Part shown: positions 1,784 to 5,729 of the stretch, piece by piece
How positions within the stretch are numbered: the stretch's first letter is position 1
Layout of the letters: each line of letters starts with the position of its first letter
Virus record (IMG/VR): IMGVR_UViG_2695420658_000001
DNA: 5,729 nucleotides
Source of the DNA: a virus
Taxonomy: Duplodnaviria; Heunggongvirae; Uroviricota; Caudoviricetes
Strand: one strand, 5' to 3'
Program-made: the position numbers and the translations under genes
The notes under the pieces: model-generated
What the model was told of the DNA's origin: nothing
Database searches by the model: none
Seen by the model: only the letters and a program-made list of their open reading frames with translations

Positions 1784-2296
1784 TGCGCCATGAGTTTATT
1801 TTACCTTATCCGCCGACGGTGAATACTTACTGGCGACGTCGTGGCAGCACATATTTTGTATCAAAAGTTGGTGAGCGTTATCGCCGTGATGTGACGCTAA
1901 TTGTTCGCCAGCAGCGGCTGAAATTAAACCTGTCCGGAAGGCTGGCGATAAAGATTATTGCAGAGCCACCGGATAAGCGCCGTCGTGACNNNNNNNNNNN
2001 NNNNNNNNNNNNNNNNNNNNNNNNNNNNNNNNNNNNNNNNNNNNNNNNNNNNNNNNNNNNNNNNNNNNNNNNNNNNNGGAAGACTGGCGATAAAGATTAT
2101 TGCAGAGCCACCGGATAAGCGCCGTCGTGACCTGGACAATATCCTGAAAGCACCACTGGATGCGCTGACGCATGCCGGACTACTCATAGACGACGAGCAG
2201 TTTGATGAAATCAATATTGTGCGCGGTCAGCTCGTTCCTGGTGGGCGACTGGGCGTGAAGATTTATGAAATCACAGGTGATAACGATGGCGCGTGA
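1783..2296 (+). CDS. rusA: RusA Holliday-junction resolvase, interrupted by an N-run and duplicated flank
   Basis: N-terminal part '[21 protein letters not shown]...[10 protein letters not shown]' and C-terminal part '[23 protein letters not shown]...[18 protein letters not shown]' match the RusA pattern, including the DxRRRDLDN catalytic block. AGGAGG lies at 1767-1772. As given, the two halves are in different frames; removing the 88 N plus one 54-nt duplicate copy (142 nt) restores a single 120-aa ORF. Confidence 0.85.
1936..1989. repeat. 54-nt left copy of the duplication flanking N-run 1
   Basis: ggaaggctggcgataaagattattgcagagccaccggataagcgccgtcgtgac matches 2078-2131 with one mismatch (g1941 vs a2083). 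Confidence 0.9.
1990..2077. other. N-run (88 nt), unresolved sequence or scaffold gap
   Basis: Run of n flanked by a near-identical 54-nt duplication inside rusA. Confidence 0.95.
2078..2131. repeat. 54-nt right copy of the duplication flanking N-run 1
   Basis: Matches 1936-1989 at 53 of 54 positions. Confidence 0.9.
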
Positions 2297-2672
2297 TATT
2301 CAGCAGGTTATGGAACGGTGGGGGGCTTGGGCTGCAAACACTCATGAAGATGTATCCTGGGCGTCGATCGCTGCTGGTTTTAAAGGGTTAATTCCGTCGA
2401 AAGTGAAATCACGCCCTCAGTGTTCTGATGATGATGCAATGATAATTTGTGGCTGTATGGCCCGGTTGAACAAGAAAAATCAGGATTTGCACGATTTGCT
2501 GGTGGATTATTACGTAGGTGGAATGACTTTTATGAGTCTGGCACGGAAACATGGGTGTTCGGATACCTGTATTGGCAAGCGCCTGCAGAAAGCGGAAGGG
2601 GTTATTGATGGCATGTTGATGATGCTTGATATCCGGCTGGAGATGGACAGATACGTAGAACGAATTATGTAG
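2286..2672 (+). CDS. quuD: Q-family late-gene antiterminator homolog (QuuD-like)
   Basis: 128-aa ORF '[61 protein letters not shown]...' closely matches my recollection of E. coli DLP12 QuuD. Its start overlaps the rusA 3' end (ATG 2286, rusA stop 2294-2296). A promoter-terminator cassette follows immediately downstream. Confidence 0.8.
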
Positions 2673-2676
2673 GTGC

Positions 2677-2706
2677 TTGACCAGACACATTGTCCGGGGC
2701 TATATT
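2677..2706 (+). promoter_or_regulatory. candidate late promoter (PR'-like): TTGACC, 18-nt spacer, TATATT
   Basis: -35 TTGACC at 2677-2682 and -10 TATATT at 2701-2706, beginning 5 nt after the quuD-like stop. A terminator lies about 75 nt downstream, as in lambdoid PR'/tR' arrangements. Confidence 0.4.
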
Positions 2707-2713
2707 CCTCACG

Positions 2714-2731
2714 CGCCAGCAAAATCTGGCG
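2714..2731 (+). promoter_or_regulatory. stem-loop in the predicted late leader (CGCCAG-caaaat-CTGGCG)
   Basis: Perfect 6-bp inverted repeat at about +1 to +20 of the predicted transcript, with no T-run after it. Possible pause or qut-associated RNA structure. Confidence 0.3.
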
Positions 2732-2767
2732 TCGGGATTGGAACCCCGGATAGAGACCGCGACAGAC

Positions 2768-2791
2768 ACACGCCGCGAGCGTGTTTTTTAT
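2768..2791 (+). terminator. rho-independent terminator (tR'-like)
   Basis: Stem ACACGC (2768-2773), loop cgcga, stem GCGTGT (2779-2784), then TTTTTATT. It is + strand specific; the reverse-strand hairpin has no T-tail. Confidence 0.55.
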
Positions 2792-2965: not shown

Positions 2966-3026
2966 NNNNNNNNNNNNNNNNNNNNNNNNNNNNNNNNNNN
3001 NNNNNNNNNNNNNNNNNNNNNNNNNN
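2966..3026. other. N-run (61 nt), unresolved sequence or scaffold gap
   Basis: Run of n directly after repeat copy A. Confidence 0.95.
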
Positions 3027-3048
3027 ACTGCGCCAGCGGAGAACTACG

Positions 3049-3648
3049 ATGGCGCATATACAACTGATCAAACAAACCTCTTCCGGATTACTTCTCCCGG
3101 CGACGCCGGAGAGTTGCGATTTTCTGCATCAAATCAAAACAGGTGAGTGGATACACGCAGACTTTAAGCGTGTGCGTAACTACGCATTCCACAAGCGTTT
3201 TTTCAAACTCCTGCAACTGGGTTTCGATTACTGGACTCCGGTCGGTGGGGCGATCACGCCTCGCGAACGAAAACTGGTGTCCGGTTTCGTTGATTACCTG
3301 TGTGAATCAGTAGGCCGGGAACATACGCCAGCTCTGAGCGAAGCCGCAGAGCAATATCTGAATACAGTTGCGACACGCAGAACCCGGGATACGGCATTGC
3401 TAAAGTCGTTTGAGGCTTTTCGCGAGTGGGTAACCATTCAGGCTGGATTTTACACCGAACATTTTTATCCGGACGGTAGCCGCGGGCGTCGGGCAAAATC
3501 CATCGCTTTTGCGAATATGGACGAAACCGAGTTTCAGCAGGTTTATAAATCTGTTCTGAATGTGCTGTGGAACTGGATTCTGTTCCGTAAATTTTCCTCT
3601 CCGGAACAAGTCGAAAATGTGGCCGCGCAGCTGCTGGAGTTTGCGTAA
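3049..3648 (+). CDS. hypothetical lambdoid nin-region protein (resembles the DUF1367 family)
   Basis: 199-aa ORF with GGAG at 3038-3041 seven nt upstream of ATG 3049. Its stop TAA 3646-3648 overlaps the next gene's ATG (TAATG). The frame is open into the N-run, so the start could lie further upstream. Family assignment is from memory only. Confidence 0.65.
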   Translation: MAHIQLIKQTSSGLLLPATPESCDFLHQIKTGEWIHADFKRVRNYAFHKRFFKLLQLGFDYWTPVGGAITPRERKLVSGFVDYLCESVGREHTPALSEAAEQYLNTVATRRTRDTALLKSFEAFREWVTIQAGFYTEHFYPDGSRGRRAKSIAFANMDETEFQQVYKSVLNVLWNWILFRKFSSPEQVENVAAQLLEFA

Positions 3649-3938
3649 TGGTGGATTTACGTAAAGCGGCGCGGGGGCAGATGTGCACCGTCAGAATTCC
3701 TGGCTACTGCAATCACGATCCGGAAACGTCTGTGCTGGCGCATTACCGACTGGCGGGAACGTGCGGAACAGCGATAAAGCCACACGATATGCAGGCAGCG
3801 ATTGCCTGTAGCTCGTGCCACGATTTAATCGACGGGCGGGTAAAAACCAGCGATTACACCAAAGAAGAATTACGCCTGATGCATGCAGAAGGTGTTTTTC
3901 GCACACAAGAAATCTGGAGAAAGGAGGGATATTTATGA
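3648..3938 (+). CDS. ybcO: YbcO-like protein (DUF1364, putative nuclease of lambdoid nin regions)
   Basis: 96-aa ORF 'MVDLRKAARGQMCTVRIPGYCNHDPETSVLAHYRLAGTCGTAIKPHD...IACSSCHDLIDGR' matches the E. coli DLP12 YbcO pattern (MADLRKAARG...VRIPG.CN..PETSVLAH.RL.G.CG...KP.D...IACS.CHD.ID.R). Translationally coupled on both sides. Confidence 0.8.
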   Translation: MVDLRKAARGQMCTVRIPGYCNHDPETSVLAHYRLAGTCGTAIKPHDMQAAIACSSCHDLIDGRVKTSDYTKEELRLMHAEGVFRTQEIWRKEGYL

Positions 3939-4489
3939 TTTACCCAACGAATACAGGAAAAAGCGGAGAACACCTTCGTCTCACCACGCTGGAAAGTGTC
4001 TGGATTCAGGGAAAACTACGTATGTGGGGGCGCTGGTCGTATATTGGTGGCGGTAAGACGGGGAATATGTTTAACCTGATGTTGACCTCTAAAAAGCTGA
4101 CAAAAACGGCAATTAACGAGGCGCTCCGGAGGATGAAAAAAGCAGGTCTGAACAAGTCTGAACTTGAGGCTTTTTTGCGGGATATGATTAACGGTAAGCA
4201 AAAGAGCTGGCTGGCGCATTGTACTGATGCAGAGGCGTTATGTATTGATCGGGTCATAAGTGAGGTGCTGGCAGAGCATCCAGGATTGATTAGCGTCCTT
4301 CGGCAACGGTATGAGGGGCGGGGGATGACCAAACGCAAAATGGCTGAACTGCTGAATGATGCACACCCGAAATGGAGTTTAAGAACCTGTGAAAGACGCA
4401 TTGAGCATTGGCTAAAGGTGGCAGAATTTATTTTGTACAAACCAATGGTTATGGCTTTTGGTATAGAGAAAAAAGTTATTGCTTTTTGA
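3935..4489 (+). CDS. putative late-gene regulator, candidate second Q-like antiterminator (184 aa); function uncertain
   Basis: Strong RBS AAGGAGGG at 3921-3928 and ATGA overlap with the ybcO-like stop. N-terminal 'LRMWGRWSYIGGG' echoes the 'ERWGAWAAN' motif of the QuuD-like protein. C-terminal 'VLRQRYEGRGMTKRKMAELLNDAHPKWSLRTCERRIEHWLK' resembles a sigma region-4 / HTH segment. It is followed by the same 196-bp promoter cassette as quuD. Confidence 0.55.
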   Translation: MIYPTNTGKSGEHLRLTTLESVWIQGKLRMWGRWSYIGGGKTGNMFNLMLTSKKLTKTAINEALRRMKKAGLNKSELEAFLRDMINGKQKSWLAHCTDAEALCIDRVISEVLAEHPGLISVLRQRYEGRGMTKRKMAELLNDAHPKWSLRTCERRIEHWLKVAEFILYKPMVMAFGIEKKVIAF

Positions 4490-4534
4490 CGTAAAAACTG
4501 CTTCAATTCTTGTACGCTTCGCAAAGCTGTACCN

Positions 4535-4730
4535 ACGCCGCGAGCGTGTTTTTTATTGTCGTATGCACGCGCACATCTGAATTATGGTGGGGCGCATGGG
4601 GGAGCTGAAAAGCTCGCCGGTCGGTTTCCCGGTAGTTCCAACCCTGTGCGTCTCACCACCCGATGATTGGAACCTGACGGTGTTGACAGTTTCAGGTTTG
4701 CAGTTTACATTTCCCCGCGGTGCTCAAAAC
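4535..4730. repeat. 196-bp direct repeat, copy B (identical to 2770-2965)
   Basis: Perfect identity. A single ambiguous base n at 4534 sits immediately upstream, inside what would be the terminator stem. Confidence 0.95.
4683..4711 (+). promoter_or_regulatory. sigma70-type promoter TTGACA, 17-nt spacer, TACATT (inside repeat copy B); candidate late promoter
   Basis: -35 TTGACA at 4683-4688 and -10 TACATT at 4706-4711. A terminator-like hairpin with T7 tail begins about 30 nt downstream of the predicted start site. Confidence 0.45.
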
Positions 4731-4746
4731 ACCTCGAAAGCGGTAT

Positions 4747-4776
4747 CCACACCCGATAGCCATGTGGTTTTTTTGT
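4747..4776 (+). terminator. candidate rho-independent terminator (weak stem, strong T-tract)
   Basis: CCACA (4747-4751) pairs with TGTGG (4763-4767) across an 11-nt loop, followed by seven T (4768-4774). The stem is short, so confidence is moderate to low. Confidence 0.4.
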
Positions 4777-4917
4777 GTCCAGAATTCTTGGTTTATGACC
4801 GGGTGTGCGGCTAATACAATACCAGCAATGGAAATACGCCCGCCGACTTTCGACGGTTTTGAGCGCCCGGTCACCCTCTCAAAAGGGGTAAATCAAAATA
4901 TTCGAAAGGACATGTCT

Positions 4918-5481
4918 ATGAATCGCACGTCTATTGAAAAACTCCCGTCACTTACGCATAACCATCTTCCTGTCATGACAACAGAGCTGCTGGCTGATTT
5001 GTACGGAACAGAGCGCCAGCGTTTGACAAACAATTTCAATCGAAACAAAGAACGGTTTATAGAAGGTAAACATTTTTTCCTGATAGAAGGTGATGCGTTA
5101 CGAGAGTTGAAGAACGAAAACTCTTTAAGAGTTTCTGTGAAAATTGCCCGTAACGTTCGCTCCCTCATCCTCTGGACAGAACGTGGCGCAGCCCGTCACG
5201 CCAAAATGCTCGAAACCGATCAGGCGTGGGAAGTGTTCGAAAAACTGGAAGACTGTTATTTCAACCAGAAACAGCCACCAGCGGCACAAAACACATCTAT
5301 CGAAAATGATGGATGCGCATTACTGAGCCACTTCGATAAACACGGTCAGGTTGAGTTCACGGAAAAGGTACCCGCCGATGCGATGGTATGTACTCTGGAA
5401 CGGTTTAAATTTTATCTGGAGCAACACGGGTGGATCGTTGCCCGTAAAGAGCAACTGGTGGAGCGGTTGATGCGGTTTTAA
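4918..5481 (+). CDS. ORF6N-domain (KilA-N / Bro-N-like DNA-binding fold) protein, antirepressor-like; C-terminal about 75 aa unassigned
   Basis: 187-aa ORF. 'PVMTTELLADLYGTERQRLTNNFNRNKERFIEGKHFFLIEGDALRELK...LWTERGAARHAKMLETDQAWEV' fits the ORF6N pattern (VM..DLA.LYG.E...L...RN.ERFPEDF.F.L...E...LK...WTE.G.A...L..D.A). AAGGA at 4906-4910 precedes ATG 4918; ATG 4912 is the alternative start. Confidence 0.75.
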   Translation: MNRTSIEKLPSLTHNHLPVMTTELLADLYGTERQRLTNNFNRNKERFIEGKHFFLIEGDALRELKNENSLRVSVKIARNVRSLILWTERGAARHAKMLETDQAWEVFEKLEDCYFNQKQPPAAQNTSIENDGCALLSHFDKHGQVEFTEKVPADAMVCTLERFKFYLEQHGWIVARKEQLVERLMRF

Positions 5482-5512
5482 AAATTTTTTCCGAAAACTT
5501 TACGATCGTAAA

Positions 5513-5549
5513 NNNNNNNNNNNNNNNNNNNNNNNNNNNNNNNNNNNNN
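5513..5549. other. N-run (37 nt), unresolved sequence or scaffold gap
   Basis: Run of n. The 24 nt directly after it (5550-5573) exactly repeat 5357-5380 from inside the ORF6N gene. Confidence 0.95.
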
Positions 5550-5562
5550 TCACGGAAAAGGT

Positions 5563-5588
5563 ACCCGCCGATGAGCGGGTTTTTTTAT
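5563..5588 (+). terminator. rho-independent terminator
   Basis: Stem ACCCGC (5563-5568), loop cgatga, stem GCGGGT (5575-5580), then TTTTTTAT. Confidence 0.6.
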
Positions 5589-5636
5589 ACCTGAAAAACG
5601 GCACAGGACGTTAAACGTGCTGGTGGTCAGATGAGT

Positions 5637-5665
5637 TTGCAGATGTGATGACATATGGTTATTAT
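5637..5665 (+). promoter_or_regulatory. candidate promoter for the tRNA gene (TTGCAG, 17-nt spacer, TATTAT)
   Basis: -35 TTGCAG at 5637-5642 and -10 TATTAT at 5660-5665, placing the start site a few nt before the tRNA 5' end at 5675. Confidence 0.35.
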
Positions 5666-5674
5666 TCTGCCTCC

Positions 5675-5729
5675 GGCCCTTTAGCTCAGTTGGTCAGAGC
5701 GAGCGACTCATAATCGCCAGGTCGCTGGT
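5675..5729 (+). tRNA. ileZ: tRNA-Ile (anticodon CAU, lysidine-type, ileX/ileZ-like), 5' portion; truncated by window end
   Basis: GGCCCTTTAGCTCAGTTGGTCAGAGCGAGCGACTCATAATCGCCAGGTCGCTGGT closely parallels E. coli ileX as I recall it. D-arm AGCTCAGTTGGTCAGAGC; anticodon loop CTCATAA with CAT at 5709-5711. Met versus Ile2 cannot be fully settled from the anticodon alone. Confidence 0.8.

Follow-up and report, generated by a model that had tools for sequence, protein, structure and literature searches.

The closest described counterpart of the locus reported here is the ileZ-argN-argO cluster of phage 933W (GenBank record AF125520; also found in VT2-Sakai, and as ileZ-argO in phiP27), which lies between the antiterminator gene Q and the lysis genes, behind a TTGCAG-17-TATTAT element placed 9 nt before the tRNA and annotated in that record as 'pT; putative tRNA promoter'; terminators precede the element. 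In Escherichia coli K-12, ileX and ileY stand alone and encode tRNA-Ile2, which is lysidine-modified and reads AUA; thrU and glyT belong to the host operon thrU-tyrU-glyT-thrT-tufB. Compact tRNA arrays for codons used more by the phage than by its host are carried by the virulent phages T4 and T5. Our literature search gave no paper on ileZ together with argN/argO or Stx, nor any that joins 933W to tRNA genes and rare codons, and the matches for ileX treat island integration sites, not phage tRNAs.

The stretch that we analysed (5,729 nt of a Caudoviricetes record, IMGVR_UViG_2695420658_000001; the window) ends inside a tRNA gene, which is very probably the first gene of a four-tRNA operon of a lambdoid prophage, with a putative pT promoter and a predicted role in codon supply, cut by the end of the scaffold. 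This reading draws on the identity of the tRNA, its completion in relatives, the content of the array, its position, the conservation of the promoter and codon enrichment. The features of the window are collected in Table 1. The gene order runs from a DnaB-type helicase through RusA, Q, matches to isrK, c4-a1b1 and C4 RNA, and a DUF1367-YbcO-DUF1133 block that sits between two N gaps, to a second C4 copy, a match to sRNA-Xcc1, an ORF6N gene (the last protein gene ahead of the tRNA), a terminator, pT and the tRNA. Because the Q gene lies upstream, the tRNA falls into the late leader, the interval from Q to the lysis genes, which is also its location in 933W and phiP27; the original prediction was right to assign it to the late region. 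The RNA matches directly after Q, together with the ORF6N gene, look like a P1/P7-type c4-ant module in the late leader. The isrK match ends in a terminator and could represent a short, terminated late-promoter transcript.

Table 1. Features of the window (positions in nt, counted from its first letter)
Feature	Position	Strand	Basis or detail
N runs	1990-2077, 2966-3026, 4534, 5513-5549		Window is a gapped draft scaffold
Antiterminator Q gene	2265-2672	+	Pfam PF06530 (Phage_antitermQ), E 2.7e-52
c4-a1b1	2700-2752		Rfam, above gathering score
isrK	2713-2789		Rfam, 77.5 bits, above gathering score
C4 antisense RNA, two identical copies	2815-2898, 4580-4663		Rfam, above gathering score
sRNA-Xcc1	4797-4880		Rfam, above gathering score
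ORF6N-domain antirepressor-like gene	4912-5481	+	Pfam PF10543, E 9e-21; RefSeq 'ORF6N domain-containing protein'
Scaffold gap and duplicated flank	5513-5573		N run 5513-5549, then 24-nt copy (5550-5573) of 5358-5381
Intrinsic terminator (predicted)	5563-5586	+	Terminator scan; ACCCGC-CGATGA-GCGGGT and T-run, ACCCGCCGATGAGCGGGT
Sigma-70-like promoter, pT type (putative)	5637-5665	+	Consensus scan and conservation in relatives
-35 TTGCAG	5637-5642	+	Better register of scan match
-10 TATTAT	5660-5665	+	17-nt spacer after -35; 9 nt to tRNA position 1
tRNA-Ile2(CAU), 5' 55 nt of a 77-nt gene	5675-5729	+	Rfam; cut by window end
Anticodon CAT of tRNA-Ile2(CAU)	5709-5711	+	Direct reading

The 55 nt of the gene that lie in the window (GGCCCTTTAGCTCAGTTGGTCAGAGCGAGCGACTCATAATCGCCAGGTCGCTGGT) comprise the acceptor 5' strand, the D-arm, the anticodon arm, the variable loop and the T-stem 5' strand, with CAT inside an anticodon loop CTCATAA (CUCAUAA in the RNA). 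The Rfam tRNA model (RF00005) matches this piece on the + strand with 34.6 bits (E 1.6e-4; gathering score 29); the match spans positions 1-52 of the 71-position model and carries a 3' truncation flag. ARAGORN made no call in the window, since the truncation leaves the gene without its T-arm and acceptor 3' strand. By hand count on alignments, the piece is identical to 933W ileZ at 53/55 positions and to K-12 ileX at 48/55. Its D-loop differs from that of ileZ by one additional T and one G-to-C change, and the T-loop of relatives has G where ileZ has A. With K-12 ileX/ileY it shares the CAU anticodon, the acceptor stem GGCCC..., C4/C5 and the loop CUCAUAA, but it has U6 rather than C6, a D-loop 1 nt longer and A-C rather than G-U at 27:43, and it is prophage-borne and a member of an array. 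The original prediction had described a tRNA-Ile(CAU) carried by a prophage, resembling ileX/ileZ and having its own promoter, at 5637-5729; its coordinates are accurate, and the tRNA and a promoter-like element are indeed there.

C4 and C5 lie at 5678 and 5679, and their partners G69 and G68 are seen in the 3' end of the relatives (AAGGGCC) only. The pairs 4:69 and 5:68 are the major identity elements for E. coli TilS (PMC11947777). Because K-12 metT differs at these positions (U4 and A5 in the alignment) and the prophage tRNA and ileX do not, we accept the prophage tRNA as tRNA-Ile2, for which lysidine at position 34 and charging with isoleucine are predicted. It is a feature of a known kind, its exact sequence being already labelled tRNA-Ile in RefSeq genomes. 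The full-length tRNA of a relative also has A73, U12-A23 and C29-G41, which Nureki et al. (1994) reportedly counted among the IleRS identity elements. The top pair of the anticodon stem, A27-C43, is by direct reading a mismatch and counts against our main reading. The minimum free energy fold of the full tRNA as a single sequence was not a cloverleaf and was uninformative, and we therefore relied on ARAGORN and Rfam.

The exact 55-mer occurs at 63 public loci, namely five GTDB genome stretches (two from Shigella flexneri SFBU1023, two from E. coli ECMA0423 and one Serratia contig) and 58 IMG/VR contigs. Failure to complete a cloverleaf beyond the window had been named as refuting the original prediction, but the gene does complete in relatives with the same upstream sequence: in 55 occurrences it goes on as TCAAGTCCAGCAAGGGCCACCA, with two exceptions (one contig stops after 4 nt and one is interrupted by N), giving a 77-nt tRNA(cat) according to ARAGORN and, in relative L053, a full-length Rfam tRNA score of 70.5 bits. 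In a contig of a different genus (L005, Serratia quinivorans; - strand, about 3347-3420), the 55-mer leads into CCAGCAAGGG CCAGCAAGGG CCAG, a tandem repeat in the place of a normal acceptor end, and this odd copy is probably damaged. Window positions 5575-5729 are present at 99.4-100% identity in 10 complete E. coli genomes, where PGAP labels the gene tRNA-Ile, and similar sequence is found in 2917 of 5426 complete E. coli genomes (54%), at up to nine places per genome. None of the complete E. coli genomes covers at least 80% of window positions 4700-5729, so the window comes either from outside the complete-genome set or from a chimeric scaffold. A search for proteins identical to the product of its Q gene gave just two short draft contigs, both of GCA_001256535.1.

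Because the 3' 22 nt of the tRNA and everything downstream of it lie outside the window, the array and the lysis genes are inferred from relatives. Among 64 downstream stretches of at least 330 nt taken from the 55-mer relatives, 52 carry Ile(CAU)-Arg(UCU)-Thr(UGU)-Gly(UCC) with spacers of 1-3 nt, each tRNA having an encoded CCA. The array is covered to at least 80% in 603 of the 5426 complete E. coli genomes, is already annotated in hundreds of genomes and is also present in three phage records, including that of the isolated phage vB_EcoS-689R5, where it lies between antiterminator Q and holin S. Its Arg(UCU) gene is identical to 933W argO at only 46/77 positions, while the Thr gene matches K-12 thrU at 74/76 and the Gly gene matches K-12 glyT at 75/75; phage-type tRNAs and near-exact copies of host tRNAs are thus combined in one mosaic array. 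Unlike the host thrU operon, it contains neither tyrU nor the 116-nt spacer, and the host-like genes are fused behind the phage-type Ile and Arg tRNAs. It differs from the arrays of T4 and T5 in belonging to a temperate lambdoid prophage, in having four tRNAs only and in the two near-exact host copies. The first gene is homologous to that of the 933W cluster, but its partners in relatives are an Arg(UCU) tRNA of different ancestry, Thr(UGU) and Gly(UCC), argN, the Arg(UCG) gene, is absent from all loci that share the upstream sequence of the window, and no stx was found in 66 downstream stretches. Since neither the partner tRNAs nor the toxin cargo are common to both, membership of the Stx module, judged on the relatives, fails on two defining features.

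Several loci vary on this arrangement. The first pair of the Arg(UCU) tRNA of the array in L060 (4938-5014) is C1-G72, and this gene is not related to 933W argO. The annotation of the array in some E. coli genomes (hits H136-H145) and phage records lists a tRNA-Lys but lacks tRNA-Arg; less often, Phe(AAA), Ser(UGA) or Arg(CCG) occupies the Arg position. Together, these variants suggest anticodon switching within the array. L036 (on the - strand) and L052 diverge from the relatives directly past the CCA of tRNA-Gly(UCC), about 310-2050 nt from the start of tRNA-Ile; both have an ORF of 534-536 aa with an integrase-like N-terminus after tRNA-Gly, and L036 has a SNP in the 3' end of tRNA-Gly. In these two loci it looks as if another integrative element uses the prophage glyT copy as its attachment site. 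In L060 (5096-5537) the prophage tRNA-Gly runs into host thrT and the start of tufB and, because the prophage Gly gene is identical to glyT (75/75), this joint may be an assembly chimera or a real recombination joint.

Beyond the array, at a distance of 0.3-0.7 kb, annotated relatives have a class II holin, lysozyme RrrD, an Rz-type lysis protein and terminase, and in L053 terminator-like hairpins lie between the array and the holin gene. Some relatives have insertion sequence (IS) elements past the array in place of the lysis genes, and about one-third of the longer downstream stretches are broken by IS elements or another inserted element. Interruption by IS elements is typical of Shigella and enteroinvasive E. 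coli (EIEC).

A promoter scan of 530 bp returned a single promoter-like site, in the neighbouring register 5636-5665, with 9/12 consensus matches; shuffled sequence gave a mean of 0.5 such sites against the one observed, which is not significant alone. Because the consensus match is near chance level, the argument for a promoter rests on relatives. A homologous tRNA with this promoter-like element occurs in 933W, phiP27, mEp460, phiSTEC1575-Stx2k and two E. coli chromosomal prophages. Across the seven contexts (window included) the -10 TATTAT, 9 nt before tRNA position 1, is identical in 7/7; the -35 hexamer is TTGCAG in five, TTGCGG in mEp460 and TTGATT, with a 16-nt spacer, in Stx2k. Both hexamers are identical (6/6) in 933W, phiP27, AR_0372 and strain 149, where only 8-9 of the 17 spacer positions agree; over all contexts, identity to the window is 8-11/17 in the spacer and 5-9/22 in the 22 nt farther upstream. 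Because hexamers and geometry are kept while the spacer and flanks diverge, we take pT to be a conserved element: a putative promoter, previously annotated and, as far as our literature search shows, unmapped. The predicted transcription start is at about 5672-5673, 2-3 nt ahead of the mature tRNA 5' end. The same tRNA also stands behind different, promoter-less upstream sequence in L025, L055, L038, L066 and L040, so the promoter is not obligatory. The terminator hairpin upstream of pT also occurs in L060, L014 and L053; it is predicted to close the upstream ORF6N/Ant-like transcription unit and to insulate the tRNA unit.

Four other accounts of this locus have to be weighed against a pT-driven tRNA-Ile2 operon. 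That the gene encodes an elongator tRNA-Met is very improbable: the CAT anticodon is ambiguous, ARAGORN calls Met and many phage records carry a tRNA-Met label, but the full-length relative shares 69 positions with K-12 ileX as against 54 with metT (and 74 with ileZ), it has the C4:G69 and C5:G68 pairs needed by E. coli TilS where metT has U4 and A5, PGAP, which uses isotype-specific models, calls tRNA-Ile, and the IleRS elements named above are in place. The tRNA-Met labels of ARAGORN and of several phage records reflect the ambiguous CAU anticodon only. With just 55 nt of the gene in view, no ARAGORN call in the window and the frequent integration of prophages into tRNA genes, the piece might be taken for a tRNA fragment such as an attL or attR remnant at a prophage boundary. 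Attachment-site remnants are normally 3' pieces of a tRNA, though, whereas the piece in the window is a 5' one preceded by a putative promoter; the window is a scaffold that has four N runs and duplications at the gap flanks, which marks its end as an assembly break in a multi-copy repeat; and the gap-free relatives that share the upstream sequence and extend far enough downstream all have the gene whole, within the prophage, with Q/Ant on one side and the lysis genes on the other. With position, orientation and completeness in all relatives speaking against it, we rejected the remnant as extremely unlikely.

The original prediction had gone further than tRNA-Ile2 itself and seen here the hallmark of a Stx-phage-type ileZ-argN-argO cluster, with toxin cargo just past the window end. 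In its favour are the close match to ileZ, both in the window and at full length, a promoter geometry as in 933W pT, and a helicase and Q region that match phiP27 and Stx-phage records. Against these stand the partner tRNAs, since the D-loop variant leads to Arg(UCU)-Thr(UGU)-Gly(UCC) in all loci with the upstream sequence of the window; the annotated relatives, which pass straight to holin, RrrD and Rz; and the spread of similar sequence through more than half of the complete E. coli genomes, mostly not STEC, which makes it no specific mark of Stx phages. A tblastn search with StxA and StxB (the A and B subunits of Stx2) gave no match in 66 downstream stretches of relatives, on which we rejected the toxin cargo; this account has very little chance of being correct. 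What held, in relatives, of the expectation beyond the 3' end was the presence of further tRNAs and of late genes. The last account leaves the tRNA operon in place and makes its promoter-like site non-functional, the tRNAs being made only by Q-dependent read-through from an upstream late promoter. The consensus match at about shuffle level, the occurrence of the same tRNA elsewhere with no promoter-like site and the place of the array within the late operon are all in keeping with it. We nevertheless consider it unlikely, given the invariant -10, the retained TTG of the -35, the 16-17-nt spacer and the 9-nt distance over seven contexts, the persistence of this geometry in Stx2k despite unrelated flanks, and the intrinsic terminator directly upstream of the promoter, which in mEp460 abuts the -35.

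An 11-mer, ACCCGCCGATG, is common to the ORF6N gene and the terminator and joins the 5550-5573 copy, which is an assembly artefact seeded by this 11-mer; the gap-free relatives L060 and L014 read ...AAGTTGAATATCCTG...CAGCTTAA-ACCCGCCGATGAGCGGG at the place of 5513-5573. Gap flanks are also duplicated at the first gap (about 54 nt) and around the inserted block (about 196 nt; 2770-2965 and 4535-4730). The order of blocks in the window differs from that in related contigs: block 3027-4533 (DUF1367-YbcO-DUF1133) lies directly before the array in L068, L069 and L064, with another order in L014, and may be a scaffolding error that brought in sequence from another prophage of the same genome. Genomes can carry several copies of the tRNA region, and L042 has two on one contig. 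Because the scaffold is gapped, its flanks duplicated and the region multi-copy, the cut in the tRNA is an assembly break in a repeat and not a biological fragment. The junction from ORF6N through terminator and pT to the tRNA appears sound, since L060 reads across it with no N and eight further contigs cover window positions 4535-5729 in a single high-scoring segment pair. Both the truncation of the tRNA and the odd repeats of the window are thus artefacts of assembling a multi-copy prophage repeat.

We compared the use of the four codons cognate to the array (AUA, AGA, ACA and GGA), which together amount to 14.1 per 1000 codons in 34 K-12 core genes, 51.3 in the genes of the window, 61.2 in the early genes of relative L069, 30.7-40.7 in the late genes of three relatives and 100 in stx2AB. 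The four codons are thus 2-4 times commoner in prophage genes than in the K-12 core sample, with the early genes, which lie upstream, reaching 51-61 per 1000 and the late genes, which lie downstream, only 31-41. The enrichment fits the usual codon-supply explanation, with the downstream late genes not singled out, and may simply reflect lower G+C; the supply of rare-codon tRNAs that the original prediction had proposed thus keeps its footing for prophage genes in general and loses it for a special service to the genes downstream.

In the intact element, we propose that the sigma-70-type promoter pT would fire 2-3 nt upstream of the tRNA, and that Q-modified late transcription from upstream would also read through into the array, yielding one transcript with four tightly packed tRNAs, Ile2(CAU), Arg(UCU), Thr(UGU) and Gly(UCC). 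From this transcript the four tRNAs would be freed by host RNase P and 3' nucleases, and host TilS would convert C34 of the CAU tRNA to lysidine, after which the tRNA would be charged by IleRS and read AUA. Together the four tRNAs would decode AUA, AGA, ACA and GGA, codons that E. coli seldom uses but that abound in the AT-richer prophage genes; the array would thereby raise the translational capacity for phage genes, while the terminators after it would keep the lysis genes from being expressed in the absence of Q action. The predicted parts of this model are promoter activity, processing, lysidinylation and the effect on fitness.

This tRNA variant is a marker of a Shigella/EIEC-type Ile-Arg-Thr-Gly array before lysis genes and should not be taken to signal Shiga toxin. 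In the virB-ipa-mxi-spa entry region of the Shigella invasion plasmid pCP301 (33 coding sequences; L079), the four codons amount to 87 per 1000 (AUA 33.4, AGA 17.5, ACA 21.9 and GGA 14.4), frequencies that are 2.5-17 times those of the K-12 core sample and above those of the prophage genes. The four tRNAs look intact in many loci in which the adjacent lysis region is broken by IS elements, an intactness subject to ascertainment bias, the 55-mer locus set having been selected by presence of the tRNA. It is conceivable, if quite unlikely, that the array is a lysogen-expressed 'moron' that would be driven by pT in uninduced cells and would benefit the Shigella/EIEC host and not the phage alone; a further, speculative option is that its tRNAs counteract anticodon-nuclease defences. 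As a moron, the array would supply decoders of AUA, AGA, ACA and GGA, the codons that the AT-rich genes of the invasion plasmid over-use the most, and the benefit to the host would explain why intact tRNAs stand beside lysis regions broken by IS elements.
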